Source: Macrostomum hystrix (Eukaryota; Animalia; Platyhelminthes). From it: DNA of 64,000 bases. Shown here piece by piece: positions 3,628-60,751 of this stretch; within the stretch, counting starts at the first letter, position 1; the number at the start of each line of letters is the position of its first letter. The DNA lies in the NCBI GenBank assembly GCA_950097015.1, contig CATNEN010000001.1, positions 10,664,001-10,728,000 on the forward strand, given 5' to 3'. The position numbers and the translations under genes are program-made. Under the pieces are notes generated by a model that did no database searches, had not been told where the DNA came from, and saw only the letters and a list, made by a program, of their open reading frames with translations.

Positions 3628-3629
3628 AC

Positions 3630-9633: not shown

Positions 9634-10064
9634 TGTTGTGACGCAGCCCTCACCTCTGCCCTATCATTTTCATATCTTTCTCATTCCCTGCCCCGCCAGT
9701 CGGCTAGCGTGCCCCACCCCAGTCATATGTATCGATCGCCCAGCCTACCCCTAATTGTTAAATGTACATTTCACCCGTGGGCCGGCGCTTGCGTAAGCCC
9801 CGGGCGAAGACTTGTTAATTAAATATATATTGACTCTGCGAAGAGACCCGAGTCTCAACCGTTCCGCCTGTTCACCCTGCATTGCTCATTAATTAAAACA
9901 GCCTTCAATTCAATCCAAGTTCAAGCCTCGCTGGGCCAGTCGTCGGCCGTAAGTACCCTGCGCTCTCTTTTCTGCCATTCCCTGGGAGACGGGACGGGTG
10001 GCACCCGACTGGGACCTGGGCTGTCGCAGCTTCCCCAAAGGCTGTAGGGCCGTGAGACACAACA
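9634..10064 (+). repeat. 3' LTR of element 1
   Basis: Direct repeat of 3197-3627, followed by TSD CCTC. Confidence 0.97.
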
Positions 10065-20570: not shown

Positions 20571-21527
20571 CCAGTGTACACAGATCACAGGAGTTCTCAA
20601 AGCCAGTGTACACAGATCACAGGAGTTCTCAAATCCAGTGTACACAGATCACAGGAGTTCTCAAAGCCAGTGTACACAGATCACAGGAGTTCTCAAAGCC
20701 AGTGTACACAGATCACAGGAGTTCTCAAAGCCAGTGTACACAGATCACAGGAGTTCTCAAAGCCAGTGTACACAGATCACAGGAGTTCTCAAAGCCAGTG
20801 TACACAGATCACAGGAGTTCTCAAAGCCAGTGTACACAGATCACAGGAGTTCTCAAAGCCAGTGTACACAGATCACAGGAGTTCTCAAAGCCAGTGTACA
20901 CAGATCACAGGAGTTCTCAAAGCCAGTGTACGCAGATCACAGGAGTTCTCAAAGCCAGTGTACGCAGATCACAGGAGTTCTCAAAGCCAGTGTACGCAGA
21001 TCACAGGAGTTCTCAAAGCCAGTGTACACAGATCACAGGAGTTCTCAAAGCCAGTGTACACAGATCACAGGTGTTCACAAACCCAGTGTACACATAACGC
21101 AGGTGTTCACAAACCCAGTGTTCACAGATCACAAGTGCTCGCAAACCCAGTGTACCAGATCACAGGTGTTCACAAACCCAGTGTACACAGATCACAGGTG
21201 TTCACAAACCCAGTGTACACAGATCGCAGGTGTTCACAAATCCTGTGTACAAAGTTCACAATTGTACTCAAAGCCAGTGTACACAGATCACAATTGTACT
21301 CAAAGCCAGTGTACACAGATCACAATTGTACTCAAATCCAGTGTACAAAGATCACAATTGTACTCAAAACCAGTGTACACAGATCACAGGAGTTCTCAAA
21401 GCCAGTGTACACAGATCACAGGTGTTCGCAAACCCAGTGTACACAGATCACAGGTGTTCACAAACCCAGTGTAAACAGATCGCAGGTGTTCTCAAAGCCA
21501 GTGTACGCAGATCACAGGTGTTCTCAG
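20571..21527. repeat. 32-bp minisatellite CCAGTGTACACAGATCACAGGAGTTCTCAAAG
   Basis: About 30 tandem units; homogeneous on the left, more diverged on the right. Confidence 0.98.
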
Positions 21528-29100: not shown

Positions 29101-29327
29101 CACTCTCCCATCTCATTCTCATCCCACTCTCATCGCATCCCAGTCTTTCAACCCGATCCCTCATTTCAGTCTTCCATCCCACACTCTCATCCCACTCTCT
29201 TATCCCACTCTCTCATCCCACTCTCATCCCACTCTCTCATCCAACTCTCTCATACAAATCTCATCCCACTCTCATCCCACTCTCTCATCCAACTCTCTCA
29301 TACAAATCTCATCCCACTCTCATCCCA
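26180..29327. repeat. 11-bp minisatellite CCACTCTCAT(C/G), related to the 13-bp unit
   Basis: Tandem 11-mers with interspersed 13/14-mers; a non-repeat segment ATCCCAGTCTTTCAACCCGATCCCTCATTTCAGTC occurs near 28029 and 29137, showing a larger internal duplication. Confidence 0.97.
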
Positions 29328-36400: not shown

Positions 36401-38327
36401 CATTGTCATCTGAATCAGCAAACACATTCCAGGCATAACGCAACTCTGGCCAATGAATGTCTGCAGCTGATAATGTCACAAAAAAGTGCGGCAACCCCAG
36501 CGTCTGAATCATTGCTTCCAACTGGCGCCGTCTAGTCTGCCAATAGCTTGCTGTACCGCGAAGATCGGCTGCTCGTGCAGACACACTCGCCATCACCACG
36601 GGATCCTTCAGCTTCTCCAGCATCTCTTTTGCATCTAGTCCGGCCAAATTTTTGTCGTGCACAAATACACGTCCCATTTCAAGCGCTCTCCAACGCATCA
36701 CCATGTTCTCTAAATAAAACCGAAAACGCGGATCTCGACGAAATCTCGGACAATGGAACTGCATCAAATGCTTTGCATAATCTCCAAGGCTCATTGAATG
36801 AACTCGTCCCGGTGACTTGTAATCCCCTCTTCCATCTGGAAACAAATGCGGATATGCCAGACTGAACAATCCGTCCTGCTCAAACTCATTCACCGGTTCG
36901 CAACCAAGTGTTGGCCATTGCAACTTTTCTTTCAGCAGTCGATCTCGAACCTTTACTTCCAACTCACGTAATGGACTATCTAGCAAACTGCTCATCAGCC
37001 CGTCGCTAGCCTCTGCTTCTGCAGCATCCAAGTCAACTCCATCAGACGTTGCTTCTGCCGCTACCATAGACTCTACATCATTTAAATGACCATCATTCGG
37101 CAATCTATTCAATGCTTCGTCATCAATTCTGACACCGCCCTGTTGAAAGTACACATTGTTCTTAGTCAGATACCTGATGGCATTCAAAACTTTATCGCGA
37201 CGCACTCGAAGATTATTCATTCTTCCGCTTCTCGTTCTGCCAGACTCGTCATCGCTTTTTCCATCATACATTAAAACCACTGGCAAAGTTCGTCTTGGCA
37301 GTTCACGAACAACACTAGCTTGATCTTGAGGAAACATTATTCCATGTCCTCTACTTGCGTGCTGGCCTTGTGGAAACAATCGAAACACAACAATCACCGA
37401 CAGTACAGGCGAGATCAGCATCTGCTCGGCGACCGTCAAATCACGCAATTCTTCAGGCTGCTCAGACATTGGGTTCGCATCATTTTCATCGCTAAACAGA
37501 TTCGGTACATGCTTATCATTTCTGCACCGGTGGCACATTGTACGCGAATCAATTGAAAAATAGACACCGGGAAACTGTTCCTTACACATATCGCATCTTC
37601 TCAAATCCGTTATCTTTGTCTTGACATTATTGAAAAAATCACTGCGCATCTGCTTATACCGGTCACTGAATGGCGCACGAAGACATGCTGGCAGGCTTAG
37701 ATCACCAACTTCGTTAACTTCTTGCTGAACATCTTCCACTCCGCTGGATTCAACGTTATTAACAACTTCAACTTCAATTGGTTGCTCTGGTCCAAATGAT
37801 TGCCGCTTTCTAGGGGAAGCACGATTTGGCTCATCAGATGTCTCGTTTGTAGCACGAGCACGCTTTCGAGGCGACGACAACGGTGTGTTAGCATGCGATG
37901 ATTCCACGTGGCATTCTGCTTCTGATCGTTCTTCTCTAACTGCCCCGTCTGGCTGCTGCTGTTGTTCTATGTTTCTCGGCTGCTTTCTTGGCGATACTCG
38001 CACTTCAAATTCCTCCTGCTGCTGCTGCTGCTTTCTGCTGGTGCGTCTTTGCCTTTTCTGAATGTCTCCTCGCTTATCTGTCTGATGCTCACTCGCTTTA
38101 TCAGTAAGCTCATGTTGACTTTTAGTACATGGTTTATTTCTTTGTGAACGGCGTGCGCCACGGCTTTTACAAACCGGACCGGACCTATCGACACGGAATC
38201 AGCCATGTTTTGAAGGTTTCTAGGAGAAGCTAGAATAGACACACTACCATCACTGCTTGTGTGTTCGCTTAGTCGGCTGCTTCGACTATTAGAACAGCTG
38301 TGCAAATCACTCTGCCGACTCTTGGAT

Positions 38328-39406
38328 CTAGAGATCCTTGAAGATACATTTGACGCAGAATCGCAACCGACACACGATCGACATGAAGTTGACGTTCGAA
38401 TGCGGGTACTACGTCTGGTTGAGCTCAGGCTGGAAACATTTGACACAAGATCGGACACTTCTGATTGACACTCACTGTTTGTTGCATTGTACAGGCAACT
38501 ACTTGGACGCCTCGAAGCGTTTGACACGTCACTATCTTTCCGACGAATTCTCCGAGAAACTGTAGAAGAAATTTCAGAAGTGCACTCACTACTGGCCGCC
38601 CTGTCGCTTAATCTGCTGCTTCTACGTGTAGCAACGCTTGGCACAATCTCACTCTTCTTCCGTCGACTTCTTCGAGAGATATTCGATGCCACATCTGAAA
38701 CGCAATAGCCGATCACTGACTCGCTCTGCTCAGAAGAATCGGCACTCATCGGTTCAGCATCCAAATCAACATTTTGCAGAACACTAAACCGATTCCCTAC
38801 AGGAAACTGGCTATCCAAAGCAGCATTCATATCCTGCTTGACGCTTTTCATTGACGGCATATGACTAGAGATCCTTGAAGATACATTTGACGCAGAATCG
38901 CAACCGACACACGATCGACATGAAGTTGACGTTCGAATGCGGGTACTACGTCTGGTTGAGCTCAGGCTGGAAACATTTGACACAAGATCGGACACTTCTG
39001 ATTGACACTCACTGTTTGTTGCATTGTACAGGCAACTACTTGGACGCCTCGAAGCGTTTGACACGTCACTATCTTTTCGACGAATTCTCCGAGAAACTGT
39101 AGAAGAAATTTCAGAAGTGCACTCACTACTGGCCGCCCTGTCGCTTAATCTGCTGCTTCTACGTGTAGCAACGCTTGGCACAATCTCACTCTTCTTCCGT
39201 CGACTTCTTCGAGAGATATTCGATGCCACATCTGAAACGCAATAGCCGATCACTGACTCGCTCTGCTCAGAAGAATCGGCACTCATCGGTTCAGCATCCA
39301 AATCAACATTGCATGTTGCAGAACACTAAACCGATTCCCTACAGGAAACTGGCTATCCAAAGCAGCATTCATATCCTGCTTGACGCTTTTCATTGAAGGC
39401 ATATGA
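38328..39406. repeat. 537-bp tandem duplication inside the Helitron gene
   Basis: Copies start at 38328 and 38865 and are nearly identical; CTAG at all three boundaries; the second copy has 5 extra nt near 39311. Confidence 0.97.
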
Positions 39407-43209: not shown

Positions 43210-45575
43210 TGATGTGGAGTGTACTTCGGAATCGAGTGGGGTTGTGAGCCAGCCTAATTTTTCCAATTTTTAGCAAGTCAATAATCGCGACCCACATAGC
43301 AGCTGGCCGCAGAACACCATCATTAATCTTAGGGCCAGACATTGGGCGGAGGTGAATTAAGTAGCCGCCGATTCCCTTTGTCTCGGATCTGTCTAGTCCC
43401 CTGTAGGAGTGACTGATCGCGGAAATAGCAATACTGTATGGACTAGTTTAGGTCATAATTCCCCTCCAAGCCGCGATCAGATTGTCGGGATCACTCATGC
43501 GTTTAGAGTGAGCTTTAATTCTTCATGTCCCTCTTCTTTACTGTAACCCGAGCCGGGGCTCGATTATGACCTTTCCCCCTTTAGATACATGTAACGACAC
43601 TATAGGCAGGTCGGCGCCTGCGCTTCCCATATCCCGGCGGGATCACAATCATTGGCCGACTGCCGGCAGACGCTCCTAGTGGGGCATCTGGCGATTCTCG
43701 CCGCCGCTTCAGTGGGCAATTGGGGTGGCATAATGCCGACCCGATTCCTCGCTGACAGGCTGGCGAGCATGTGGGTTATTTTGATGAATGCGAGGTTGGC
43801 GGAGCTGCAGGACTATTTAAGAAAGCGCGCTGCGCTGCCCCTAGGACAACCTTTTTCCTTTTTCCGGGAGCCTTTCCCGGCGACCTACCTTTAACCTACC
43901 GAACTTCCCTTCTCACCTTTTTCCCTACCTGTCTGGTCCCGGAACACGGTCCGCGGACTCTCCCCCTGAAAAGCTAGAACTTAGCCCCTGAGCCTAAGGC
44001 TCCTGAGAATAGCCACAGGTAAATTACCTGCATAGCCCCTGAGCAGTTAAGCCACCTCTTTGGGTGAGCTCCAATTGAGCCGTGTGCTCCTGCGATTTGG
44101 TCCCTTGCCAATCGCACTAGGCACCCCCGTCCCTACTTCCTCTTTCAATTGCCTTTCCCAGCGAGACCAACGGCCTGCAGTCTGTCAACCAGCATCGCAG
44201 ATAAGTAACCCGCGTAGCGGACTTTTATTGCTATCCCTAAGGGATTTATTATCTAGCTAGTGGGCAATTGGGGCAAGGGCAGGGTTTTGATTCTAGCCTA
44301 ATAAACTATTATTCATCTTAGTCGCCAATCATTTAACTATTAGGCAATTTAGTAACAATTTAAATCACTTTCTATCATGCTGTTATTTCCCCTTTATTTT
44401 CTCATTGGACAGCCCTCAATCATGAGTGGCTAATTCACTAGGGGAATGGGCTCTGGCGAGGCCGAGCTGAAAGCTGCGGCAAGAAGGCTACTGTGAGCGC
44501 GCATGAGAGTAATATGGAGCTAGGGATTTGCGAGCTAAATGCGGGATGTAGCGTGTGCATTTCTGCCTACGAGGTGGGGGATTCCTTGGCCGGCTTTCCT
44601 CACTCTCTCGGCGGGTTCCAGTGTATGCGTCAAGTTCCTTTGCCAATTTGAATTCTCCCTCTTTTCCCCGCCTTTCGCAACCGCGGCCATGGGAGCGAGA
44701 GGCGTGATCTAATAATTTCCTGCTTGCATAATCACTCAGCCAGTGTTCAGCTTAATCTCTCCTGCCTCTGTTCTCCTCAACTCACACAGAATCGGCTTGC
44801 TAGTTATCTAATGAGTAGGCTGCAGTCTAATGTACGGAATGTGTCTAATGTCTCATGAGTAGGATTCTGGCTATGGATTTCTCATTCGGGTTCGGAGTAC
44901 CACCTTTCTAGACCACTGTAGCGCAGTTTCAGGAATCCCCTTGTGAGGCGTGACTCGATCCATTCTGGGGTTCTCACCCTAGTCTAAAACGGAAGTTACA
45001 GAATGCTCTATTTTTCGGCTTGTCTAAGATCTGTGTGACAAACTGGGAGCTGCGAGCTCCGGGGACCCAAGTTCCCAAATGTCTGCGGTGGCAACGTAGG
45101 CGCATTGGGTGGTGGCGCTACCTTCGATCATTATCCGCTTTGCCGATAGCCTTTCCGCATTTCTAAGACAAGAGTCTAGGCCGAGTCGACCACTGCTACC
45201 AAAGTTAGGAGTCAGTTACGAACATGCTACTGATGACAGTAGGCTATCTAGCCCTGTCCTATTCGCTTGCGGGTAGTCCGACATCTATTTAGACTTTTAG
45301 CCGGTTTCGAGCACTGCTTGGGGTGGGCACGGCAGTCATGCCTGTGGCCTATGGGTTGGGTGGGACTGGCCAGCCTGAGGCCAATAGGACCACTCACTTG
45401 CATCCTTTGTACCGCCTCATCTCTCCCTTCATCTCTCCCTTCATCCCTCCCTTCGTCATCCCTCTCTGCGACAACTCGCGGCAGCAGCGATCGACCTCCG
45501 ACTCTATCGTCGTTTTCCACACTCCTATCTTTCATGAGGGCGGTCATCGGCTAGCAAAAGACCCGCACTATTTCA
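43210..45575 (+). repeat. 5' LTR of element 2 (2366 bp)
   Basis: TGATGT...ATTTCA ends, PBS 1 nt downstream; TATA-like TATTTAAG 43814, AATAAA 44300. Confidence 0.95.
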
Positions 45576-45576
45576 A

Positions 45577-45594
45577 TGGTGGCAGCGGTGGGAT
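45577..45594 (+). promoter_or_regulatory. Primer binding site, tRNA-Leu
   Basis: TGGTGGCAGCGGTGGGAT is the reverse complement of ATCCCACCGCTGCCACCA, the 3' end of tRNA-Leu(AAG/TAG type) as recalled. Confidence 0.9.
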
Positions 45595-46914
45595 CTAGAA
45601 AGGGCGCGAAACGAACCTGAATTTTTCAATTGTTAGTTTAGCGCCGCAGATTTCTGTGGTAGTTAGCCGTAAGGGCTTCTTCTAGATTTCATCTTCCGTA
45701 CGCCTAAATCTTATCTCTAGAGACTGGACTTCAGTTCGAGTAACTGTCAATTAATTTTCTTTGAACAGTTTCAATTTGATTCGGACTTTAATGTAAGGAT
45801 TTTGTTAGGATTTCCAAAATTTCTGATTAGTGACTTTCTACTAAGAGTAGGCTGTGTGAGCGGACTTCATGCTAGAGTGTCTTCGGGTTATGTGGCTGCT
45901 GCAGGAGTCAGGGACTGTCTGTGGGGTTTCCCGCGTGACTGTTCTGGGAGGGGCCAATCTTAACGAAGGACCGGACCATGCCGGTCAGGCCTCCTAACCG
46001 AGCGAAGTGAGCCCCCGGCAATGCAGCCGGGAACCGATGACGAAGTCCGCGGACATCGCTGAGCACCGGGGGTTGGTTCTCTTGGGCAGCTTGCAGGCCT
46101 GCTTACGTGTACCTGATTCTGAAAGTGTCACATAGCTTTGATCAAGTCTGACTTTGGTGGGGAACAGTTAGGGAGGTGGGACCTTCTGGGAGGTCTAGCG
46201 ACACCCGTGCCCGCCTCTCGAAGCTGCCTACTTTAAGTATGGGCTAGAATTCGGTCGGCGCGTCTTTCTAAGAAACTCTCTGAGGGATGGTCTAAACGGA
46301 GAAACCGGGCTCTAAGCCACGGACCCCTAACCGAGCGAGGTCTCAGATGTATAATTCCTGGGATCCCCAGCCTCGTAAATCGCGGAGGCGAAGCCCCCGG
46401 CCATCCCAACCGGGAAGGGCCCTCTGAGCGAATCGGGGATTAGCCTTCTTTGAATGACTTTTTGAGTCGCGTACTTTCCAAGGTAGGGAGATAGGCTGCT
46501 GCAGGCGCAAGCTTGCAGTAGTACTGGCCCCGCCGTACCTATAGTGTAACAGTCCGCTATAGGGTTGCAGAACGAGTGCTAAGTTAAAACCTAGACTTCT
46601 ATGTCCCAAACTTAAGTGCGCGCAAACAGTTGACAGTAGCCAAGGCTGGAAGCAAAGCTAGCCAGGGCCCTGGGCCCTTTTTCTCTCTCACTGATCTCTG
46701 ATCATTTTTGCGGTAGGGTTGCTCTCTAGGAGTAGGGAATTCGCCGCATTATCAATTAGGGCTGGATTTGACAGCTCAGGCTCATTTTCTTTCCCCCCCG
46801 CACGATCTCCAGTCGTGATCTGTTTTTCCTTTTCCTCCCCTCCCCCATTGTTGCATTAGCGACAGACCCCCCTCTTTTTCATTCGCAAAACCCTCATTCC
46901 TCTTTTGGCCGAAA

Positions 46915-49900
46915 ATGTCCGACCAGGAGGATGAGGTCGTCGAGGTGATCGGCGCCCCCCGTCCAACCAAAAGTAGGGCTGCCTCCGCAGAAAGGTGCCA
47001 GGAAAGGCGCCCCCTGCCTGCAACTGCAGCCCCGGGTACCCCTAGAACGGACCCGTGGGAGGTCCATCGCTGCCTTCTCGAAATGCTGCAGTCCGTAAGG
47101 TCCGACTTGCAATCGCTTAACGGCCCGGTGCACTCCCCGGTGTTGCGGCACTCGGTGGCCACCCAGACGGAAGGTGAACGGCCGCAGGCGGTCAGGCCGG
47201 CGTGTGGTTTCCGAATCCCGGTAGAGCCATTCGACCAAGGTCGCTCCGACATTGCCTCTTGGATGCTTCGACTGGAGGCAAAGTTTCAACTTGAGGAGGT
47301 CACCGACGATAGGGCCAGGAATGTGACCTGTTACAGCCTGTTGCCGGAAGAGATGCAGTTAGAAAGTCTCCTGACGGTTGACTTTGATGGCCCCTTTCAG
47401 CAGTTCCGGGCCAGGTTGCTAGACGGCTGTCTGGATTCCAGGTTGCCGGTAACTAAGAGGCGCACGGTAGAGCGACTGCAACCACGTCCGGGGGAGGCTC
47501 CCGAGGTGTTCTTAGTGCGGCTGAGGAAGCTCGTGGAGTGGGCTTATGCTGACTATCCAGAGGACTGGCGGCAGAACGAGCTCAAACAGCTCTATCTACA
47601 GAACGGCCACTTCGATTCCAAATTCGCTTTTGAAGCATTCTTGGCGAGAGACTGGACCCCGGAGGGCACGGTGTTTGAGCAGCGGAGGTCCGAGGAGGCT
47701 GACCACGTCGCGCACGAGATTGAAAGCGAGCAACTAAGTTCAGCCTCCGAGGACGCTTCGCTGTATCAGAGCTGTGCGTCCCCAGTGGGCAGCCCTCCTC
47801 GAGCCGCGGTCAGGGCGGTAGAGGCGGCAGACGAAGCTGGCCCCGCAGAATTCCGAAATGGAGTGGAGAAGGTGGGAGTCGGATCCCAACTAACGGCTGA
47901 ACAAGAAAGGCAGCTGGGAGACTTGTTGCGGGCCAACGCCGACCTGTTCGCCGACCAGGAGGAGGACCTGACGGTCACGACAGTGGTCCAGCATGAGATC
48001 ACGCTGACCGACCCTCGGCCCGTGAAGTCGGCGCCGCGGAGGATTCCTCAGGCCTACCTCGAGGAGGTGCAGCAGATGGCCAGGGAGTGGTTGGAGGCAG
48101 GGAAGGCCAGTCACTCGGCCAGTCCTTACTGCTCGCCGCTGGTGCTGGTGAAAAAGAAGGACGGCTCCCTCCGCGTCTGCATTGACTATAGGGAGCTCAA
48201 CGAGCGGAGTGTGTCAGAGGTCACACCGCTGCCGCGCATCGACGAACTGCTGGCATCGTTGCATGGGTCCTCCTATTTCACCACCCTGGATCTCCGCAGC
48301 GGGTACCACCAAGTGCCTATGCATGAAACTTGCAAACCATACACCGCATTCGCCGTCCCGGGAGTCGGGTTACTGCAGTGGAATGTGATGCCATTCGGGC
48401 TGAAGGGCGCACCAAGCACGTTCTCTCGTTTGATGAACCTGGTGCTGGCAGGCGTGCCGCAGCATGAGGCCATGGCGTACATCGACGACGTCATCGTGCA
48501 CTCTGCTACCTTCGAGGAACACCTAGTCCGGCTCCAGAAGACATTCGACCGTCTGCGGGCGGCTAACCTGAAGATGAAGCCGTCCAAGTGCTTCCTTGCA
48601 CAGCCCGAGATCTCTTTCCTAGGGCACGCGGTGTCGGGAGCGGGCATCGCGACGGACCCTCATAAGACATGTGCGCTGTCCACGTGGCCACGACCGCGTA
48701 CAGCCACCGACGTCCGCTCATTTTTAGGCGCGGTGGGCTACTACCGTGATTTCGTGCCGGAGTACAGCTGCCTCTCGGCGCCTCTTTGCGAACTCACCAA
48801 AAAGGGCCTTGTGGATGTGGAGCCCCTCTGGGACGACCGGCACGAGACCGCGTTCGAAGAACTGAAGGCGCGGATGGTCGAGGCGCCCGTGCTGGCCCAC
48901 CCAAGTTTCGAGAAGGGCGCAGGGCGTTTCATACTCGACTGTGACGCCAGCCTGGAGTCCTTGGGGGCGGTGTTGAGCCAAGAACAGCCGGACGGGACGG
49001 AGAGGGTCTTGGCCTATGGCAGTAAGGCATTGTCCGCATCTCAGCGGAACTATTGCGTCACAAAACTAGAAATGCTGAGCCTCGTGTACTTCACCAGGAA
49101 GTACAGGTATTACCTACTGGGCCGCCGGTTCCTGGTCCGAACCGACCACAGCTCCCTCCAGTGGCTGAGGAGCTTTAAGGAGCCAACTGGCATGTATGCT
49201 CGGTGGGTGCAGCACCTGTCGCTATACGACTTCGACCTGGAGTATAGGAAGGGCAGCCTCCATACCAACGCCGACGCATTGAGTCGCCGGCCTAGACAGA
49301 GACACGGAGATTGCCCCGTTTGCCGGCCGTTGGAGCCCGGCAGTGAGGAAGAGAGTGAGGACGAAGGCGTGGTGGTAAACGCCGTCGCGGCGCAGGCAGT
49401 CATGGAACCGCCGCTGCAGCCCGAGGAATTGCTGGCCCAGCAGGTCGCCGACCCGGTGATCCATTGGATACTGCAAGCTAAGGTCAACGGTTTGGCCGCC
49501 CCAGACCCGGCCGCGGTCCCGGAGTTGACCGCCAAGCAGAAGGTCGCTTTGAAGAAGCTGTTGCCCTACTGGGACCTCTTGAGGGTGGAGGAGCAGCTGC
49601 TCAAAATCCAGGTGCACGCTCCCCCCCGGCCGCCGCTGTGGCTGCTCCCAGCAAGCCTCGACGAACAGGCTTTTCACTCGTGCCATAACGGGAGCTTAGC
49701 CGGGCATTTCGGGCGTCAAAAGACCCTGGCGCGTGTCGCCCAGTGGTTTTGGCGACCAGGACTCCGCGCTTCGATGCAGAAGCTGTGCGCGCAGTGCCAC
49801 GCCTGCCTGTGCAGCAAGAAGGGCCGCAGAGCTCAGGCTCCGCCGCAGCCATGGGAGAAAAGCCCGAAGTTCTCACGGATCCACCTAGACTTTGTCGGCC

Positions 49901-51057
49901 CCCTCGGTCGCGGCGGTCAGAGCATCCTCACGATCGTGGATAGCTACTCCGGCTGGGTCGAGGCGTTTCCTGTGGCCAACCAAACCGCTAAGGCAGTCAC
50001 GAGGATCCTGTCCACAGAGTTCATCCCACGGTTCGGGGTGCCCGATTGGATCCACAGTGACCAGGGCGCTCAATTCGAATCGAGCCATTTCCGCGACTTT
50101 TGTCGGAAGCTGGGCATTCGAAAGACCAGGACCACGCCCTACCACCCACAAGGCAACGGCATGGCGGAATCCCAGCACCGCACCCTGAAGGCGCTGTTGA
50201 CAACGGCCGTGGGCCGACACCACGAGAAGTGGAAGGCTCACCTGGGCGCTTGCCTTGCCGCCATGAGGTCCGCCGAACACTCCTTGACCGGATTTTCACC
50301 TTTCTTCTTGGTGTATGGGCAGGAAGCCCGGCTGCCCGTAGACGTGGCACTGGCCGCGCCGGCCGAAGCACCTGCGCCCCATCATTACGCGGAGCAGCTC
50401 TTGCAGAACCTGGAGGAGGCTCAAGTGCAGCTGCAGGAGCAATTTAACCAGAAGCTCCAGGCGCAGGCCCGAATGGGGGACAGGCAACGAAAGACGGAGC
50501 TCGAGGTAGGGGCCGTTGTGTACCTGGCCCGCCATCAGATCGAAGGCTGGGAGATTCCCAAATTTCACCAGGCCTACTCGGGACCATGGAAGGTGGTCGC
50601 GAAGCCGGGCGTGTCGATTTACGACGTCGCGCCGGTGACCCCGCAGCCCGGCCGACAACAGACGTACCGGGTGCACCGCGACAACTTGCGAGCTGTTCCC
50701 AAGGAGGCCGGGGAAGTCCGACCAACCCAGGAGGCGGGCGAGAGGCAACCAAGGCAGGTGCAGCGTGGGCCCGGGCGGCCGCCCGTGAGGCCCAGGCCAG
50801 CCTCACCCCCGCCGAGGATGTTGAGGGCGGAAAGCGAGTCCGAGGACCAGTGGAGCGACGGCTCCGACTCCGAGGAAAGCTGGTTGGGCCCCGAGGAACC
50901 GCCGCCGCAAAGAGTGGACGAGGGTCCGCGAGTGTTGAGGCCCCGGAATGGCATCCGACCCCCCGAGCGCTGGGGCTATGTCCGGAGGATTCTCCTCGGT
51001 GAACCCGAGTCCGACCCGGAGTCCTGGGCGAGGACCAACGGCCACGACCCGGGCTAG
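46915..51057 (+). CDS. Single Gag(capsid)-RT-RNase H-integrase polyprotein, no protease or CCHC motif
   Basis: Capsid-like LQPRPGEAPEVFLVRLRKLVEWAY; RT CIDYRELN and YIDD; RNase H ILDCDAS and RTDHSSL; integrase HHCC, HLDFVGP, HSDQG, AES; no D[ST]G-type protease motif between capsid and RT. Confidence 0.95.
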   Translation: MSDQEDEVVEVIGAPRPTKSRAASAERCQERRPLPATAAPGTPRTDPWEVHRCLLEMLQSVRSDLQSLNGPVHSPVLRHSVATQTEGERPQAVRPACGFRIPVEPFDQGRSDIASWMLRLEAKFQLEEVTDDRARNVTCYSLLPEEMQLESLLTVDFDGPFQQFRARLLDGCLDSRLPVTKRRTVERLQPRPGEAPEVFLVRLRKLVEWAYADYPEDWRQNELKQLYLQNGHFDSKFAFEAFLARDWTPEGTVFEQRRSEEADHVAHEIESEQLSSASEDASLYQSCASPVGSPPRAAVRAVEAADEAGPAEFRNGVEKVGVGSQLTAEQERQLGDLLRANADLFADQEEDLTVTTVVQHEITLTDPRPVKSAPRRIPQAYLEEVQQMAREWLEAGKASHSASPYCSPLVLVKKKDGSLRVCIDYRELNERSVSEVTPLPRIDELLASLHGSSYFTTLDLRSGYHQVPMHETCKPYTAFAVPGVGLLQWNVMPFGLKGAPSTFSRLMNLVLAGVPQHEAMAYIDDVIVHSATFEEHLVRLQKTFDRLRAANLKMKPSKCFLAQPEISFLGHAVSGAGIATDPHKTCALSTWPRPRTATDVRSFLGAVGYYRDFVPEYSCLSAPLCELTKKGLVDVEPLWDDRHETAFEELKARMVEAPVLAHPSFEKGAGRFILDCDASLESLGAVLSQEQPDGTERVLAYGSKALSASQRNYCVTKLEMLSLVYFTRKYRYYLLGRRFLVRTDHSSLQWLRSFKEPTGMYARWVQHLSLYDFDLEYRKGSLHTNADALSRRPRQRHGDCPVCRPLEPGSEEESEDEGVVVNAVAAQAVMEPPLQPEELLAQQVADPVIHWILQAKVNGLAAPDPAAVPELTAKQKVALKKLLPYWDLLRVEEQLLKIQVHAPPRPPLWLLPASLDEQAFHSCHNGSLAGHFGRQKTLARVAQWFWRPGLRASMQKLCAQCHACLCSKKGRRAQAPPQPWEKSPKFSRIHLDFVGPLGRGGQSILTIVDSYSGWVEAFPVANQTAKAVTRILSTEFIPRFGVPDWIHSDQGAQFESSHFRDFCRKLGIRKTRTTPYHPQGNGMAESQHRTLKALLTTAVGRHHEKWKAHLGACLAAMRSAEHSLTGFSPFFLVYGQEARLPVDVALAAPAEAPAPHHYAEQLLQNLEEAQVQLQEQFNQKLQAQARMGDRQRKTELEVGAVVYLARHQIEGWEIPKFHQAYSGPWKVVAKPGVSIYDVAPVTPQPGRQQTYRVHRDNLRAVPKEAGEVRPTQEAGERQPRQVQRGPGRPPVRPRPASPPPRMLRAESESEDQWSDGSDSEESWLGPEEPPPQRVDEGPRVLRPRNGIRPPERWGYVRRILLGEPESDPESWARTNGHDPG

Positions 51058-52423
51058 GGAGAAGTAGTTTCCACTGCGGGCGCCCCAGAGCGCTCACTCG
51101 GCCGTGCTAGGCGACCAAGCCCCACTGGAATTTCGTGGCAAAGCCCCCGCCCTTCCGTTACTTCTCCCCTTTAGTAAAATGCGCACTCTGCACTTTTTGC
51201 TCCTTTTCTCCTATTGTGCACGCCTTCCTTTTTCATCAAAGCCGCCTTGGCACAAAAATCTCATAAAAATTCTTATAATTTAGCCAGAAACCCAAAAACA
51301 TACCTAGTGGGGTGAAATTCCCCTAGTACTTTTTCGCATGAGATGCCTATCTAATTGTAGCAATCTAGGGCATGCACCTTCTTTTCTCAAAGAGCATTTT
51401 ACTTTTATTCGCACCACATCATGCATGGCACCTTTGCCTTATCTTGCTTCATATTGGTGGGTCTGTGGGAGTTCAATTTAGGACAACTTCTAACTTAGGA
51501 GGGGCACCAACCCGCTAAAGTGAGCGGGGTGGTATGCCATGGGAAATTCTATGTTTCTTTAAGGGAGGGAAGGCGGTTTCAAATCAAAAAGGCCATCTCG
51601 GCGCCAAACCCTCTTAAAAACTCATATAAACTAATCAAAATCCAAAAACATACTTAGTGGGGTGAAACTCCCCTAGTACGAATTTTCGCATGAAATATTT
51701 TCGTAATAACTGCCGCAAACTAGGGTTCGCACCTACTTTTCGCAAACTTGCTTATCTTACATGTTCTCTATGCTTGGTTTCGGGAGTTTAGCTATACCGG
51801 CTTCTATTTAGGGGGTATACCAACCCGCTAAAGTGAGCGGGGTGGTATGTTTCGGGAATTTTCTTCTTAATGTTTGTTTAAAGAGTGGGCGGTCGTAAAT
51901 CAAGAGGCCGGTAGGATCAGGTATTCGAACTCTAGGGGGAAAACAATCTGGCTGTTTCAATGAACGACAGATTTTAAAAATGATAACTTTTCCTTTGTTA
52001 GGATTAGGAGGGTCAGAAAAAAACCTTATTTGGGAGCCAGAAGTTAGCAGTTGGGCATTCAAATCTAGGTGCCTGGAGGGGTAGAATAGTAATAAATCGT
52101 ATGAATTAAGGTTCCAGACGTTTTAAAAACTCATTAACAGTCTATCAGTTAGTTTTTTCGGTTACTAGGCGGTTGTAAAACTTGAGCAGTAATGTTTCGT
52201 CTAGGAAAGAAGACGGGTGAAAATAGTGAGCCCTCTTTCATATTTCAAATGGTGGCGTAAAAGAAAAGGAGCCAGGGATTTTTGCATGTTTATTTCGTTA
52301 TGCATAGAAAGTTCATTTAGCACCAGTCGTGGTATATGAGTCTGTGTGGGTGCGGAGGCTGATCATGTGCTGATAGGTGGGCCGGGGCGTCGTAGGAGTG
52401 AAGGTGGCGCGACTGGGTGGCTC

Positions 52424-53056
52424 TCACAGAAAGTACGAGATGAAGCCCAGAACAAGGGCCACGGCGATCATGGCGACTGCCAGAGCTGCGCCTAGTGGGC
52501 CCCGGATAAAGCCGGGGGCTATCGCGGCCACGTCCTCCTCGCGGCCTTCGGGCACGTTAATGTCTGGAGGGGTAAGGTGGATGAGTAGCTTAGTAAACGG
52601 GCAGCGATGGTTCGTAGGGGGAAGTCGCAAATAGTGGAACCCAAGTTGGGTGGGAGAGCATGACAGAAAAAAACATCTAACTTACTCATCACGAATGATA
52701 AGGCAATGGGATCGCCTGAGCTGGCCCGGCGCCGAGGCGGATTTAAAAATCCGGGCAGGTAATCGCTGGAAATGGAAGGAGGGTGTGGCCAGATTAGGCG
52801 GGGACAAAATAGTATTGACAATTGCAATCCAAATAACTCAATTTAATCAATCTTTGGCTGGGGAAGGGTTTTTCCCTTATTGGGTCGGGGTCAATTTCAG
52901 ATTTTTGGGGATCAGTAGGCGTGCCGTGGGTAAGGGGGATTTCGTTATTCTAATTCTTATGCAATAACCCTCGCAATAATCCTTAAATAACCGGCCTTGG
53001 GGGGGCCGAGTAGAAGTAATAACTCACCTTTCGTCTCCAGGTTGCTGCTGGGCCAT
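52424..53056 (-). CDS. Antisense three-exon accessory gene, 82-aa protein with a C-terminal transmembrane helix. Exons 53056-53028, 52765-52686, 52563-52424
   Basis: ACCACAATGG start; donors AG|GTGAGT and A|GTAAGT; acceptors CCTTCCATTTCCAG and CCTTACCCCTCCAG; 29+80+140=249 nt in frame; TATAAAAG at 53213-53206; AATAAA at 52294-52289. Predicted only. Confidence 0.72.
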
Positions 53057-53989
53057 TGTGGTTTCGGACGAACGAGTATGATAGCGGTAGCTTATGTTTA
53101 GGCACTTCGGTAGCTTATGATAATGCACTTCGAAAGAAGAGACTGGATTGCGGTGAAATTTTCAAGAGATAACAGGCTTGAGGTTAATGGGGCGTCAAGA
53201 GTTTGCTTTTATAGGGCTAATTTAGGGAGACGTGGCGGTCTAACCGCCAGCCAATGGGAGCAAAGTGGGGATTCCGGGCAGAACCAGTTTAGGGGGCCCA
53301 TAGTAACGGTTTAGTTGTTGGGGCCCTGACCTTTTCGGTGAGGAGACACCTCGGCCGGCAACAGCATCACAAGCGGCCTGAGCAGCGGTTTCCCCAGCTG
53401 CGACCAGCTGCAGCGCCGATTGGGCCGCGCGCAACGGCTAGGCAATCGGCCCGGCGAACATTCCCGGGCACGGCCAGCCGGAAACATCTGGAGCGCGCGG
53501 CGAATCAGAGGCTACCAACGCCCGGCAACAGGATCGGTGAGGACGCAGAGCGGGTCAGCCAATCTGGAGCCACCTGGTGAGAGCACGGCCGGACCCTCGG
53601 ACTTAAGGAGGAAAACGGCCGGAGCGTCCCAGGATTGCGCAACCGCGACCAAGCCGGGCAGGGAAAGACGGGGACAGCTGCAGCCACCTGGAGGAGAAGG
53701 CGAATCGGGACACGGCACCCCGGGACAGCGAGAACAACTCTAACTCAGCCGGAATGCGCACCCACCTCCCCTCAGGACTCTATCCCTTAGTTGCTAGGGG
53801 CGCCGACCTTTACACTCTCGCACACAATCTATTTATAGCAGTATTGTTACGTACGATGACCTAGGATTTCTTCTCTAGCGGATTTCTTCTTAAGGTTCTT
53901 TACGGTATACAGTAGGGTAATGTAAGTTTTTGCCCCCTCGATTCGCGGCACACCCCACTACTGACAGTAAGCACGTAAGTGCCTTACGT

Positions 53990-54009
53990 GAAAGTGAGCG
54001 AAGGCGGTG
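53990..54009 (+). promoter_or_regulatory. Imperfect polypurine tract of element 2
   Basis: GAAAGTGAGCGAAGGCGGTG immediately before the 3' LTR. Confidence 0.65.
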
Positions 54010-56347
54010 TGATGTGGAGTGTACTTCGGAATCGAGTGGGGTTGTGAGCCAGCCTAATTTTTCCAATTTTTAGCAAGTCAATAATCGCGACCCACATAGC
54101 AGCTGGCCGCAGAACACCATCATTAATCTTAGGGCCAGACATTGGGCGGAGGTGAATTAAGTAGCCGCCGATTCCCTTTGTCTCGGATCTGTCTAGTCCC
54201 CTGTAGGAGTGACTGATCGCGGAAATAGCAATACTGTATGGACTAGTTTAGGTCATAATTCCCCTCCAAGCCGCGATCAGATTGTCGGGATCACTCATGC
54301 GTTTAGAGTGAGCTTTAATTCTTCATGTCCCTCTTCTTTACTGTAACCCGAGCCGGGGCTCGATTATGACCTTTCCCCCTTTAGATACATGTAACGACAC
54401 TATAGGCAGGTCGGCGCCTGCGCTTCCCATATCCCGGCGGGATCACAATCATTGGCCGACTGCCGGCAGACGCTCCTAGTGGGGCATCTGGCGATTCTCG
54501 CCGCCGCTTCAGTGGGCAATTGGGGTGGCATAATGCCGACCCGATTCCTCGCTGACAGGCTGGCGAGCATGTGGGTTATTTTGATGAATGCGAGGTTGGC
54601 GGAGCTGCAGGACTATTTAAGAAAGCGCGCTGCGCTGCCCCTAGGACAACCTTTTTCCTTTTTCCGGGAGCCTTTCCCGGCGACCTACCTTTAACCTACC
54701 GAACTTCCCTTCTCACCTTTTTCCCTACCTGTCTGGTCCCGGAACACGGTCCGCGGACTCTCCCCCTGAAAAGCTAGAACTTAGCCCCTGAGCCTAAGGC
54801 TCCTGAGAATAGCCACAGGTAAATTACCTGCATAGCCCCTGAGCAGTTAAGCCACCTCTTTGGGTGAGCTCCAATTGAGCCGTGTGCTCCTGCGATTTGG
54901 TCCCTTGCCAATCGCACTAGGCACCCCCGTCCCTACTTCCTCTTTCAATTGCCTTTCCCAGCGAGACCAACGGCCTGCAGTCTGTCAACCAGCATCGCAG
55001 ATAAGTAACCCGCGTAGCGGACTTTTATTGCTATCCCTAAGGGATTTATTATCTAGCTAGTGGGCAATTGGGGCAAGGGCAGGGTTTTGATTCTAGCCTA
55101 ATAAACTATTATTCATCTTAGTCGCCAATCATTTAACTATTAGGCAATTTAGTAACAATTTAAATCACTTTCTATCATGCTGTTATTTCCCCTTTATTTT
55201 CTCATTGGACAGCCCTCAATCATGAGTGGCTAATTCACTAGGGGAATGGGCTCTGGCGAGGCCGAGCTGAAAGCTGCGGCAAGAAGGCTACTGTGAGCGC
55301 GCATGAGAGTAATATGGAGCTAGGAATTTGCGAGCTAAATGCGGGATGTAGCGTGTGCATTTCTGCCTACGAGGTGGGGGATTCCTTGGCCGGCTTTCCT
55401 CACTCTCTCGGCGGGTTCCAGTGTATGCGTCAAGTTCCTTTGCCAATTTGAATTCTCCCTCTTTTCCCCGCCTTTCGCAACCGCGGCCATGGGAGCGAGA
55501 GGCGTGATCTAATAATTTCCTGCTTGCATAATCACTCAGCCAGTGTTCAGCTTAATCTCTCCTGCCTCTGTTCTCCTCAACTCACACAGAATCGGCTTGC
55601 TAGTTATCTAATGAGTAGGCTGCAGTCTAATGTACGGAATGTGTCTAATGTCTCATGAGTAGGATTCTGGCTATGGATTTCTCATTCGGGTTCGGAGTAC
55701 CACCTTTCTAGACCACTGTAGCGCAGTTTCAGGAATCCCCTTGTGAGGCGTGACTCGATCCATTCTGGGGTTCTCACCCTAGTCTAAAACGGAAGTTACA
55801 GAATGCTCTATTTTTCGGCTTGTCTAAGATCTGTGTGACAAACTGGGAGCTGCGAGCTCCGGGGACCCAAGTTCCCAAATGTCTGCGGTGGCAACGTAGG
55901 CGCATTGGGTGGTGGCGCTACCTTCGATCATTATCCGCTTTGCCGATAGCCTTTCCGCATTTCTAAGACAAGAGTCTAGGCCGAGTCGACCACTGCTACC
56001 AAAGTTAGGAGTCAGTTACGAACATGCTACTGATGACAGTAGGCTATCTAGCCCTGTCCTATTCGCTTGCGGGTAGTCCGACATCTATTTAGACTTTTAG
56101 CCGGTTTCGAGCACTGCTTGGGGTGGGCACGGCAGTCATGCCTGTGGCCTATGGGTTGGGTGGGACTGGCCAGCCTGAGGCCAATAGGACCACTCACTTG
56201 CATCCTTTGTACCGCCTCATCTCTCCCTTCATCTCTCCCTTCATCCCTCCCTTCGTCATCCCTCTCTGCGACAACTCGCGGCAGCAGCGATCGACCTCCG
56301 ACTCTATCGTCGTTTTCCACACTCCTATCTTTCATGAGGGCGGTCAT
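54010..56347 (+). repeat. 3' LTR of element 2, truncated by 28 bp
   Basis: Matches 43210-45547, then diverges abruptly after CGGTCAT. Confidence 0.95.
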
Positions 56348-56389
56348 TCTATGAAAATAGAATAAAAGCAGGATATAAAAAACGCAAAC

Positions 56390-59300
56390 GACTGGCTGCA
56401 ACGAGCTAACTGCTGATCCTCCTGACCCGAGGACCTTGACACAGCGGGATCAGTCGCTCGCAGGCAGGACTGGCTGCAACGAGCCAGCGACTTCTCCCCT
56501 GTTTCCGAGAACTCCTCAACAGCAGGATTCGGTGTCTGCAGGCAGGACTGGCTGCGACGAGCGGACACTTCCTCCTCTGTCTCCGGACACACCAGAGGTT
56601 CCGGATCTGGCGCCTGCAGGCAGGACTGGCTGCAACGAGCGGGCACCTTCTCCTTCACCTCTGAGCCTTCCGCCACCACCTGAGTTTGCACCTGTGCCTT
56701 GGCATCACAGCCCCGCACCCAGTGCTCCTCCCTTGTGGCTCCCTGGCTCCAGCTACCTTCAGTAGCTACCGTCTGCACGGCGGCATCCACAGTCTGCAGG
56801 CAGAACTGGCTGCAACGAGCTGACTGCGGGGCCCCGTTGACAGGTGCTTCCCGCCTCACAGGCTGGCCTGCGGTCGTGTCTTCCTGACACCCTTGCAGCA
56901 CCGCCTTGTCTTGGCGCACCTTGACAGGCTCCAGGACCGGCTCTTTCACCAGTCCCTCAGACACAGCTGCTTCCCATCCTGGTCGGCCGTCAACGACATC
57001 TTGAGCCTTGGGTTTCACAGCTCGCAGTGGCTCTGCGGCTTCGTTGACTTCAACCTGTTTATTGTCCCCTTCCTGTCCCTCCTCCAGCTGACTCGAAAAT
57101 TGGCGGGTGCAAGCACTCGCACCGAACTGGTTGTGGGGTGTCACCACCCCAAAAGAACAATTCACCGGATTATCCGGCTTTCTCGACATCGAGTCAGCAT
57201 TTTGGTGAGACTTTCCAGGACGATGAACAATGGTGAAGTCAAACTCACTCATTCTCTCAACCCAACGGCCTAAGATGCCTGTCGCCTCGGTCTGATGCAT
57301 GAGCCACAGCAGGGCCTTGTGATCGGACCGGACAACAAACTTCTTGCCAACCAGGAAGTACCGGAAATGCCGCATCGAATCTACGACTGCCAGCAACTCT
57401 TTGCGGGTCGTAGTGTAGCGGGTCTCCGGCCCTCGCAGCTTCCGGCTGTAGTAGCCAACAGGCCTTTCTACTCCATCAGACTGCAGCTGATTCAAACAAG
57501 CCCCTATGCGGTCATCAGAGGCATCTGTGTCCAGGACGAAAGTCACCTTCGGGTCAGAGGTGTACTCCGGGTACGCCAGTACCTCCGTTGAGCACAACGC
57601 ATCCTTCAATCCCTGAAAGGCTCTCTCATGCTCTGTCTTCCACAGACCCTTCAAGCTGGTAACGTCCCGCTTAGTGAGCTCGTGCAATGGTGCTGCAATC
57701 CCTGAGTAATTGCGGACGAACTTCTTGTAGTACTGTGCCAACCCCAAGAAGCTGCGCAATTCTTTGGCGCTTCGAGGTGTCGGCCAGCCTCTGAGCTCGG
57801 CGATCTTATCCTCGTTCGTCAGGATGCCTTCTGGTGTCACCACATGGCCTAAGTAGTGCAGCTCCCTCTTGAACAGGTGGCACTTCTTCGGCTTCAGCTT
57901 GAACTGGGCTTCACGGATTCGAGTCAGCATCATCCTCAGATGCTCCAAATGGTCGTCAAAGGTAGGCGAGTGGACGAGTATATCATCGATATACCCCAGC
58001 GCCACCTTTGGCGTCAGCCCCTCCAGCAGCTTGTTGATGCAGCGCTGAAAGGACCCTGCCGAATCCGTCATGCCCATCGGCAACACAGTAAACTCAAATT
58101 GACCTCCGTGGTGAACCGAGAACGCGGTCAGGTGTCTATCCTGCTCTCTTAGCGGGATCTGCCAGAAACCCTGTGCAAGATCGAGGGCGGAATAGTATTG
58201 CGCCCCTCTCAAATGCTCAAAGGTCTGCTGTATGTCTGGCAGCGGATAGACGTGCTTCAGGCAGCGGCTATTCAACTCGCGATAGTCTAAGACAATCCTG
58301 ATAGTCTTGTCTTTCTTAGGGACAATCAGGAGAGGCGTGTTGTAACTGGAGAATGTCGGCTTGATGATGCCTTTCGCCAACATCTCATCCAGCATCTTGT
58401 CCAACTGTTCCATCAAGTGAGGCGGGATCCTCCTCGGTGGAATGCGAACTGGAGTGGGATCTGTCACAATGATCTCGTGAGTGACTAAGTCAGTGACACC
58501 ATGGTCCAGGGGATGCATTGCGAATGCCTCGCGGCACTCTCTCAACATCTCCTTAACCCGATGCCTCTGCTCCTCGGTCAACCTCTCACAGATCTCCACC
58601 TCATCTAGCCATGCCCCATCGCTCTCCAGCCCTTCTGCCTGAACCTGCCTGACCGGCGTCTCCTCTAGCTCTGGTAGATATTCGAGTTCGTCGGCCTTCA
58701 GTGGCCTCGCTAGCCCTACAAGACCATTGCGTCGAATGACCGCCGGGAAGCAAGAGGTATTGATGACTTCAACACACCCTGTTCCGTCAGCCATCGTCAG
58801 CAATGTCGGGGCCATCTCGACCTGAGACGCCCCTGGCTTCAGTCCTGACCTCAAGGACTCAACAAGCAGCGGCGTGCCGTGACAGTCAGTCCGGCCACCC
58901 GCTAGCTTCACCGCTACGAGCATCGAAGAGCGCGCTGGCACAGTGGTCTGCTCGAGTGAGTAAACCCGACTGGCCCTCGCCTCTCGCCTCGTGAACCTCA
59001 GCGGCACTTTCGTTCCAGACTTCGTGGTCAGCATCCCCTTTGGAAAGTCAATCTTCTGGGTGTGCTGGCGGATGAAATTAATTCCTAGGATGTTCTCGTG
59101 CTCGCCCTTCGTCACGCAGAACTCGACGTCTACAGCGTAGTCGCCGAGCCTGACCTCAAAGGCGACTCGCCCTAAAACCGGCAATCGAGAACCATCAAAG
59201 TTGCACAGGGCACTCTCTCCTGTCAGCACAGCGTGCGGCACTACATGCCGCAGAGATGCCCACGTCTCACTTCCAATCAGACAGCGCCTGCTCCCTGAGT

Positions 59301-59502
59301 CTAGGAGAAAAGGCACCGTCTTCTTAGAAACCATCGCCGTCACATAGGGGTCAGCGTTGGAGGCATACCAACGCTCGAGGAAGCTGGTGCTAGGAGAGCC
59401 CCTACCCTCTCCTCCAGCTGACTCCTCAGTCTCCCTCAGGCCCGTCCAGGAACTGGACTGCGAGGGGCACTGCCGTCCGTGCTCCTCGCCGTCCCGTTTC
59501 CC
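56390..59502 (-). CDS. pol: Pol of element 3 (protease, RT, RNase H, repetitive linker), truncated
   Basis: FLLDSGS, VLDYRELN, YIDD, VLDTDAS, RSDHKAL; the frame runs on through filler to a stop at 56344. Confidence 0.93.
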
Positions 59503-60713
59503 GACGTCTGAGTGCCTTGGGCCTGCAGCTCGGACTGCTGCCTGGGCTCTTGCCGTTGCTCTCTCGGGTACCCCTGAGTGTGGTGCTCGAAACGCGGCTT
59601 GGGTGGCCTCGTCGGGCAATCACGCCTCAGGTGTCCGAACTTCCCGCAACCAAAGCATGCCCCTCTTGGCGGCGCCGGTCCTTCCTGCTGCACGGCTCCT
59701 TGTGGTCGGCTGAGCGCCTGGACCAGCATCTCCTGCATCTTCTGCTGATGCTGCAGCTGTTGACCCTGGACCTCGACCATCTTGGTCATCAGCGATTCGA
59801 GTCCCTTCAGCGCAGCGGTAACACCTTGCGGTGGCGGCCGCGCATTCAGGTCCCCATCCTCGCCGTGTACCATCCGAGCCGGCCCATCCTTCGCCCTCTG
59901 GACTGCCTCGTCGACCACCTCTAGGCGCTTTAACTCTCGCCTAGCTTCCAGGAGTGTCCTAGGGCGAGTCCGCAGCAGGTGCTTGCGGTTCTCAACCGAA
60001 GTCCGAACTCCCTTAATAAACTGGTCGACCAACTCATAGTCCAGGTCTCTCTGGCGAAGGTTGGTATAGGCCTGCTCACCGAGTCCCTGCAACGCATCAG
60101 CATAGTCATCAAGCGTTTCCGCTTTCTTCTGATAGCGGTTGCGGAACTCGTCTCGGTACTCCTCAGGACTGCTCAGCTGCGCGAATCGCTCCACAATACG
60201 CTCCTTGAATTGGGCATACGTGAGCTCTTCGGGCAGCCTCATCCTGAGGACGGCATTCAGGCACTGTACATCGAGGTGGTCGAGTAGAAGGGCCTTGCGT
60301 GTCTCCGAACTGCGAATCGCAGCCCGGGCGCAATACGCTTCAAACGCCTCCACCCACAGATGTACGTCCTGACCCCGAGAAAACTTGGCAATCTTCGCCG
60401 TCCTACCTTGTTGTTGTTCCACCTGCTTCTCCATCAGGTTGAGCATCCGGTACACCAGGTCAGCCGTCGCCCTGTCGTCCAGCCTCGGTCGTCGTCGCCT
60501 TGCTGCCGCCGCCGCTCCTCGGTCGTCCTCGCCGCCGGACTGGTCGTCGTCGCCGAAGTCGCTCTCGCTGTCCTCGCCGTCGCCGACGCAGCCGTTTCCG
60601 CGGTCATACCATCTTGACCGAGCTTCCTGCAGCGCACAGCCACCGCGAGACTCCTTGCTCCGGGCTACCTGCTGCCTCTCCTCCCTCTCAGAATCCAATT
60701 CCTCTTGGGACAT
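59436..60713 (-). CDS. gag: Gag of element 3 (capsid plus one CCHC knuckle)
   Basis: FRNRYQKKAETLDDYADAL capsid motif (similar to element 1 Gag); CFGCGKFGHLRRDC. Confidence 0.94.
   Translation of the reverse strand: MSQEELDSEREERQQVARSKESRGGCALQEARSRWYDRGNGCVGDGEDSESDFGDDDQSGGEDDRGAAAAARRRRPRLDDRATADLVYRMLNLMEKQVEQQQGRTAKIAKFSRGQDVHLWVEAFEAYCARAAIRSSETRKALLLDHLDVQCLNAVLRMRLPEELTYAQFKERIVERFAQLSSPEEYRDEFRNRYQKKAETLDDYADALQGLGEQAYTNLRQRDLDYELVDQFIKGVRTSVENRKHLLRTRPRTLLEARRELKRLEVVDEAVQRAKDGPARMVHGEDGDLNARPPPQGVTAALKGLESLMTKMVEVQGQQLQHQQKMQEMLVQALSRPQGAVQQEGPAPPRGACFGCGKFGHLRRDCPTRPPKPRFEHHTQGYPREQRQEPRQQSELQAQGTQTSGNGTARSTDGSAPRSPVPGRA
59460..59502 (-). promoter_or_regulatory. -1 ribosomal frameshift signal (element 3)
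   Basis: G GGA AAC (59502-59496) in gag frame, 6-nt spacer, stem GCGAGGAGCAC/GTGCCCCTCGC (10 of 11 pairs). Confidence 0.87.
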
Positions 60714-60751
60714 GGCGTTCGTTTCCGCAGTGAATGAGTAAAAAGGCTAAC

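Follow-up and report, generated by a model that had tools for sequence, protein, structure and literature searches.

To our knowledge, all LTR retrotransposons and retroviruses of the textbooks process their polyprotein by means of a protease of their own. Among the non-autonomous LTR elements, BARE-2 lacks gag, and the LARD and TRIM derivatives have no coding capacity. TR-GAG elements, as described in the available part of the source, are shorter than 4 kb and have one open reading frame (ORF), for Gag only (PMC4350172). The accessible sections of a second source present Sabrina, WHAM and Giselle of barley as non-autonomous LTR elements keeping gag only, and Surya as one with a helper (PMC5738225). 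No description of a protease-less Ty3/gypsy family was found in the literature searched; subscription papers, Repbase/GyDB and supplements lay outside the search and may hold one. Annotation based on domains would class such a loss as mere decay. Here we describe a Ty3/gypsy-derived element, element 2, in which the loss of protease and nucleocapsid is real and lineage-wide while the set of enzymes is intact.

Structure of element 2

Element 2 is an LTR retrotransposon at positions 43210-56347 of the window, that is, of the whole stretch of 64,000 nucleotides analysed; two other Ty3/gypsy elements, 1 and 3, lie within the same 64-kb window. It is 13.1 kb long, with LTRs of 2.4 kb, and its parts are on the forward strand. 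The 5' LTR (43210-45576, about 2.37 kb) starts with TG and probably ends with the CA at 45576, a limit deduced from the position of the primer-binding site. The portion 43210-45547 is common to both LTRs, which are direct repeats and agree at 2337 of 2338 positions (one mismatch, 99.96%). The primer-binding site (45578-45595) begins with TGG and is presumably of the tRNA-Leu type; that of element 3 resembles it. A long 5' untranslated region (UTR; 45596-46914) follows, which according to contig matches is common to relatives with a different interior. The single ORF (46915-51057) encodes 1380 amino acids in the order capsid, linker, RT, RNase H, integrase and an acidic, proline-rich tail. RT, which is of the Ty3 type, and RNase H (47845-49290) were assigned by Pfam, by motifs in the translation and by the fold model; integrase (49387-50700, the end being approximate) was assigned by motifs and by Pfam, which recognised its zinc finger and its core. 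The translation contains YIDD, the acidic residues of RNase H, an HHCC finger and a D-D(35)-E triad. Near the end of the polyprotein (50930-50985) there is an LRPR...RPPxRY-like motif, seen also in element 1 and in the relative P0233, which to us recalls nucleosome-binding arginine-anchor motifs. A purine-rich tract (53990-54009) precedes the 3' LTR (54010-56347). This LTR is 29 bp short of the end that the primer site indicates for the 5' copy, and directly adjoins the integrase-less end of element 3.

A first-pass annotation had described a recently mobile element with almost identical LTRs and intact RT, RNase H and integrase. The single LTR mismatch and the open frame with all its catalytic motifs bear out the last two points and are the sole supports for the first. 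The 3' LTR is clipped, and no target-site duplication is visible around the element, the right end of which is the clipped one; together these mark a rearranged locus. Element 2 is an intact and probably young jumping gene.

Element 1 (3197-10067) is a complete Ty3/gypsy element with LTRs of 434 bp at 99.8% identity and a 5-bp target-site duplication, and lies inside a 13-bp satellite. Element 3 (56344-60746, minus strand) consists of Gag, protease, RT and RNase H followed by some 300 residues of low complexity, with repeats of 78 bp, and has no integrase. No piece of an integrase was seen to the left of element 2, and element 3 is either rearranged or naturally integrase-less. Pieces of a Helitron-like Rep and Pif1 helicase are spread over several frames at 33474-39325 on the minus strand. 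Satellite arrays at 1-3199, 10068-17440, 17440-18042, 20571-21526, 22259-25140 and 26194-29327, with units of 13, 21, 32, 25 and 11 bp, suggest a heterochromatic setting.

Between the ORF and the 3' LTR a three-exon antisense gene is predicted at 52424-53056 on the minus strand (ATG at 53056, splice donors of the form GTRAGT at 53027 and at 52685, and acceptors ahead of 52765 and of 52563). Its predicted product of 82 amino acids is not a protease and ends in a hydrophobic helix, with a hydropathy of 2.7 in the best window of 19 residues. The depth of the contigs drops over 52424-53056, and a joint from 52196 to 52945 skips most of the gene, which is missing from some relatives. Extra antisense ORFs are known in plant elements, according to the available part of PMC7264820.

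Capsid, linker and search for a protease

A two-lobed capsid domain is predicted at 47209-47736 (about residues 99-274) by a Gag profile and by the fold model. The profile placed the capsid at residues 101-228 with 33.9 bits, compared with at most 5.0 in 300 shuffles. The fold model covers residues 90-582, was built from an alignment of 27 rows and has a mean pLDDT of 83.8. In it the capsid is all-helical up to residue 274, residues 272-306 are disordered (pLDDT below 50) and the first RT helix begins at 311. The modelled capsid aligned with the MOAP1 CA-CTD (Z 10.1, rmsd 2.7, 96 residues aligned) and with the PNMA2 capsid (Z 9.9, rmsd 7.2, 159 aligned), and the fold search also matched the model to dArc and Copia capsids and to the RT of Ty3, foamy virus and caulimoviruses. 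A model made from the single sequence (pLDDT 43) and its two fold searches gave no information.

In place of nucleocapsid, protease and spacer there is a short acidic linker (47728-47844), predicted to be disordered and with no Pfam match. The first-pass annotation had given it 80-90 residues; it is short and acidic as stated, but spans only about 35-55 amino acids, judging from the disordered stretch and the start of the RT helix. Residues 266-318 include 3 arginines or lysines compared with 10 aspartates or glutamates, and the residue composition of the linker revealed no basic, nucleocapsid-like RNA-binding patch after the capsid. Both junctions, capsid/RT and RNase H/integrase, are acidic stretches of low complexity. 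The interval between the final helix of the capsid and a fixed anchor in RT measures 106 residues in element 2, compared with 232-547 in 22 single-ORF relatives; four of the 26 rows had been set aside, namely two Gag-only proteins, one misaligned protein with two RTs, and the gene model P0178, in which this interval has 94 residues. There is no room for a protease between the capsid and RT of element 2, and the protease-RT spacer is missing too, as the earlier annotation held.

Pfam detected no protease or CCHC family in element 2 at E ≤ 1, and detected both in elements 1 and 3. A protease HMM made from 163 relatives was run unfiltered over the six frames of the whole window. Elements 1 and 3, the positive controls, scored 79.6 and 61.5 bits, whereas element 2 gave no match, not even a partial one, in any of the six frames; the only other row, of -2.3 bits at 31356, lies outside element 2. 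Within the six frames of 43210-56380 there was no CCHC pattern, and of the seven D[ST]G triplets not one lay in the frame of the polyprotein or had surroundings like those of a protease. Pfam searches of the linker and of 25 of the 84 listed frames returned no retroviral-type protease and did detect the control. No protease fold was listed among the fold-search matches to the model of residues 90-582, a result which alone is not exclusive. With strict patterns, the linker was found to have no slippery site, the region 45578-48100 no splice donor and the ORF no polyadenylation hexamer, which leaves no visible route to free Gag. The motif-level absences reported at first sight (D[ST]G triad, CCHC knuckle, frameshift), and the presence of protease and knuckle in elements 1 and 3, are all upheld by these searches, and a divergent protease in the linker or in a spliced exon, which that annotation had allowed for, was found by neither profile, Pfam nor fold model. 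The absence of a CCHC knuckle is by itself not unusual, since the Gag proteins of Ty1, Tf1 and foamy virus lack one as well.

Putative processing sites

By eye, a motif of the type V-x-A/T-V precedes both RT and integrase in elements 1-3. In element 2 the candidate protease sites are VRAV at the capsid/RT junction (47809-47820, residues 299-302) and VNAV at the RNase H/integrase junction (49375-49386, residues 821-824). The offset of VRAV from the RT anchor is -61, compared with -58 in elements 1 and 3. Among protease-bearing relatives, 32 of 87 have the pattern [VIL]x[AS][VI] ahead of RT (8.8 in shuffles) and 19 of 83 have it ahead of integrase (6.7 in shuffles); a stricter pattern gave 6/87 (2.0) and 10/83 (2.2), respectively. 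A junction profile of 10 columns was then made from the relatives only, using 57 pre-RT and 49 pre-integrase sites (106). On element 2 it ranked VNAV first and VRAV second of 1371 positions, a ranking to be read in the light of a seed pattern picked once the sequences, among them that of element 2, had been inspected, and of the composition of linker and flanks, which also lifts the scores. In elements 1 and 3 it was the pre-RT site that ranked first within the protein; for element 1, the pre-integrase site ranked 27th and the post-capsid site fourth of 312. Two unsupervised Gibbs searches returned structural helices and other conserved motifs rather than the junction motif. From their position at the domain borders we infer that VRAV and VNAV are protease sites. 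Ty3 is processed between RT/RNase H and integrase, according to the accessible text of PMC6101501. The two predicted sites make the question of cleavage testable with short peptides.

Sister copies and selection

Eight runs, belonging to two studies and all under the same organism label, contained the sequence of element 2, the copies being seen through contigs; none of the runs listed with this sequence was an RNA dataset. At 80% identity or more, the region 47250-48250 had 79 records in four runs (27, 14, 20 and 18), 30 of which were listed. Among these, near-identical and approximately 89% identical contig types, from four runs and two studies, cover the linker with no interruption. Three more diverged sister types, 77-85% identical in DNA, share the short spacing between capsid and RT. 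Two distant contigs of run X1 bridge capsid and RT with 580 letters compared with 583 in the window, and 312 compared with 294, both differences being multiples of three, and a third X1 contig, 81% alike, covers 47653-48021 in one piece. The two X1 joints were the only ones listed, there was no larger insert between capsid and RT among the listed contigs at 80% or above, and no indels were listed over 47250-48250. Not every sister type is intact: a contig of 1690 nt skips 48287-48972 in RT. Since the sister types share the layout, the one-off deletion that had been considered at the outset can be set aside, and on this evidence the loss is older than the 15-23% divergence between the types.

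Of the substitutions listed in the ORF, 28 of 47 were synonymous, compared with 14.4 expected with transition bias (P = 2.5e-5), and no stops were created; the 47 are the best-supported subset (40 of the 91 over 47250-48250 and seven more), classed one at a time. The synonymous excess was present in both capsid and RT. It indicates purifying selection on the protein after the loss, at least between the closer types.

Relatives with a protease

Relatives were taken as the best 120 matches to the RT-RNase H-integrase region of element 2, and are mostly about 40-45% identical to it. Of the 118 in which the RT anchor could be placed, 72 have a D[ST]G motif 164-360 residues upstream of it. The clean set comprised 87 of the 120, being single-RT proteins with an upstream protease match; the other 33 were excluded for late starts or as long stitched gene models, three of them having been read. 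A FastTree phylogeny of 166 sequences of RT-RNase H joins element 2 to element 1 and to P0138, a Macrostomum lignano gene model (support 0.90), both of which have a protease, and these three sit inside a weakly supported set of protease-bearing elements. P0233, P0239 and P0242 also group with element 2, and share with it a CxxC motif after RNase H. The branches around element 2 are long, and attraction between them is possible. The protease-bearing neighbours are only 45-50% identical to element 2 in RT-RNase H. As the neighbours all carry a protease, its loss in the element 2 lineage looks derived. The phylogeny had been proposed as a means of deciding whether protease loss defines a clade; it placed protease-bearing elements nearest to element 2.

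Protein, metagenome and viral contig searches yielded no verified protease-less relative outside this organism. A search with residues 60-420 gave 67 matches and a phmmer search 150 listed matches, all driven by RT and none by capsid; when longer proteins were searched with the capsid alone, none of 1251 candidates matched, which is weak evidence. In a scan of 15 metagenome loci the layout of element 2 was confirmed in none of the 11 that reach more than a few hundred bases upstream of RT. Nine of the 15 had a protease above 25 bits, one had integrase before RT, and the rest were too short or unclear. Viral contigs contained nothing like element 2. Several proteins with Gag close to RT were set aside: P0221, P0292, P0076 and P0038 appear, judging by sequence, to be stitched gene models, and P0178 (from Nucella) and P0143 (from Actinostola), being gene predictions only, count neither way.

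Relatives sharing the UTRs

Runs X1-X3 contain contigs with the UTRs of element 2 (approximately 90-94% identical) but a different interior. They depart from it at 46930-46965, 5-17 codons past the start codon, and rejoin it at 51034, seven codons before the stop; one contig has a joint from 46959 to 50950. At least 291 and 526 letters of these contigs are unlike element 2. Their depth in X2 and X3 is about 90-110 compared with 11-31 over the coding region, approximately six times as much in the two runs, although depth does not equal copy number. In X2, X4 and X5 only 0, 0 and 1 records, respectively, partly fit the capsid-RT stretch, implying that the UTR-sharing relative has no piece of capsid or RT at 80% identity or above. 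It may be non-coding, a Gag-protease-only element or a distant full element.

Discussion

The lineage of element 2 has diversified by 15-23% without a protease, its enzymes and capsid being under selection, and must therefore borrow a protease, use that of the host or work uncut; each of these answers would be new for this group. Element 2 is derived from Ty3/gypsy and, as its own protease is absent, is not a canonical autonomous member. On balance we favour a semi-autonomous element which co-assembles in the particle of a helper and is cut there in trans. The capsid domain would let the polyprotein join that particle as a minority subunit, like an ordinary Gag-Pol, and the helper would provide free Gag, nucleocapsid and protease. 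Cuts near residues 300 and 822 would free RT-RNase H and integrase, and the element's own RT and integrase would then serve its RNA and the ends of its LTRs, a role that could account for the continued selection on both. A protein with capsid, enzymes and junction motifs, and with neither a basic region nor a route to free Gag, resembles the minority Gag-Pol of a foreign particle. Of the explanations offered by the first-pass annotation (processing or packaging by helper families, function without cleavage, a host protease), it is processing in trans that the retained junction motifs and the acidic, nucleocapsid-free linker favour. The helper itself was not found: among the contigs listed at 80% or above, none leaves capsid or RT for an insert of greater length. 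Elements 1 and 3 would be poor partners for co-assembly, since the alignment gives their Gags an identity of only 16-17% to that of element 2. As the sister of element 2 in the tree, element 1 is nevertheless a candidate donor of protease, though the capsids are far apart.

The UTR-sharing relative is a lead to a better helper than either of these. The two could form a bipartite retrotransposon, element 2 giving capsid-tagged RT, RNase H and integrase and its partner giving Gag, nucleocapsid and protease, with neither replicating alone; we offer this arrangement tentatively, as a possible but improbable one.

Autonomous assembly, followed by cutting of the exposed linkers by a protease of the host, for which a retroviral-like aspartic protease of the DDI1/2 type is an example of a candidate, appears unlikely. 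No close helper would be needed, which fits the lack of one among the listed contigs, and the predicted disorder of the capsid/RT linker and the acidic, low-complexity nature of both junctions would suit such an enzyme. However, the sites match those of protease-bearing relatives in both sequence and position, and packaging of RNA without a nucleocapsid would stay unexplained.

An autonomous family that works uncleaved, the junction motifs being relics or structural, is in our view distinctly doubtful. That no helper was found among the listed contigs, that the capsid is complete and conserved in fold, and that tyrosine-recombinase retrotransposons manage without a protease all speak for it. 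According to the available portions of the sources, foamy virus Pol is only partly processed (PMC5035971), and whether the integrase of DGLT-A gets released is not established (PMC6101501). Yet each capsid subunit would have to bear about 120 kDa of enzymes, strict patterns revealed no frameshift site, splice donor or polyadenylation hexamer by which free Gag might be made, no nucleocapsid-like basic region follows the capsid, and motifs are present at both junctions. Ty3, moreover, reportedly needs processing, a result ascribed to Kirchner and Sandmeyer in 1993.

The polyprotein might be irrelevant to spread, the ORF being a decaying relic and the RNA being carried passively by an autonomous family, as for a non-coding LARD. 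The existence of UTR-sharing relatives without the coding region, and of a sister contig deleted in RT, is in keeping with this. It is nonetheless very improbable, given 1380 open codons with catalytic motifs, the synonymous excess in capsid and RT, a region 47250-48250 with no listed indels, and spacing whose reading frame is preserved across types that have diverged by 15-23%. The further idea of an in-frame deletion confined to this copy, of an error in the assembly or of a hidden protease, spliced or very divergent, is largely refuted: the locus is rearranged, and a protease split over small exons would evade profile searches, but contigs from four runs and two studies tile the linker unbroken, neither the model nor the six frames contain a protease fold or a partial profile match, and the only predicted spliced gene encodes 82 amino acids with a hydrophobic tail.

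Comparison with known elements

The LTRs of element 2, its primer site and its order of capsid, RT, RNase H and integrase are as in Ty3 Gag-Pol (PDB 7q5b, 4ol8), and its modelled RT aligns with Ty3 RT over 236 residues (Z 24.9, rmsd 2.2). Compared to single-ORF Ty3/gypsy elements of the Metaviridae type, it is without protease, nucleocapsid and spacer, and its capsid-RT interval is 170-400 residues shorter than in most relatives. DGLT-A of Dictyostelium likewise has one ORF but, in the part of the source available, is described with a protease (PMC6101501). The LARD and TRIM derivatives differ from element 2, which codes for 1380 amino acids with a synonymous excess, and so do the TR-GAG elements as far as their description was accessible, element 2 being 13.1 kb long and having RT, RNase H and integrase. 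TR-GAG, Sabrina, WHAM, Giselle and Surya, as far as the same partial sources go, and BARE-2 are, like element 2 in the favoured reading, partly dependent on the proteins of another family, and have LTR and primer regions in common with their partners. Some of those non-autonomous elements retain nothing but gag and others have lost gag or their entire coding capacity, whereas element 2 has lost only nucleocapsid and protease and still encodes capsid, RT, RNase H and integrase. On the descriptions available, the gag-only and gag-less non-autonomous LTR elements are the mirror image of element 2.
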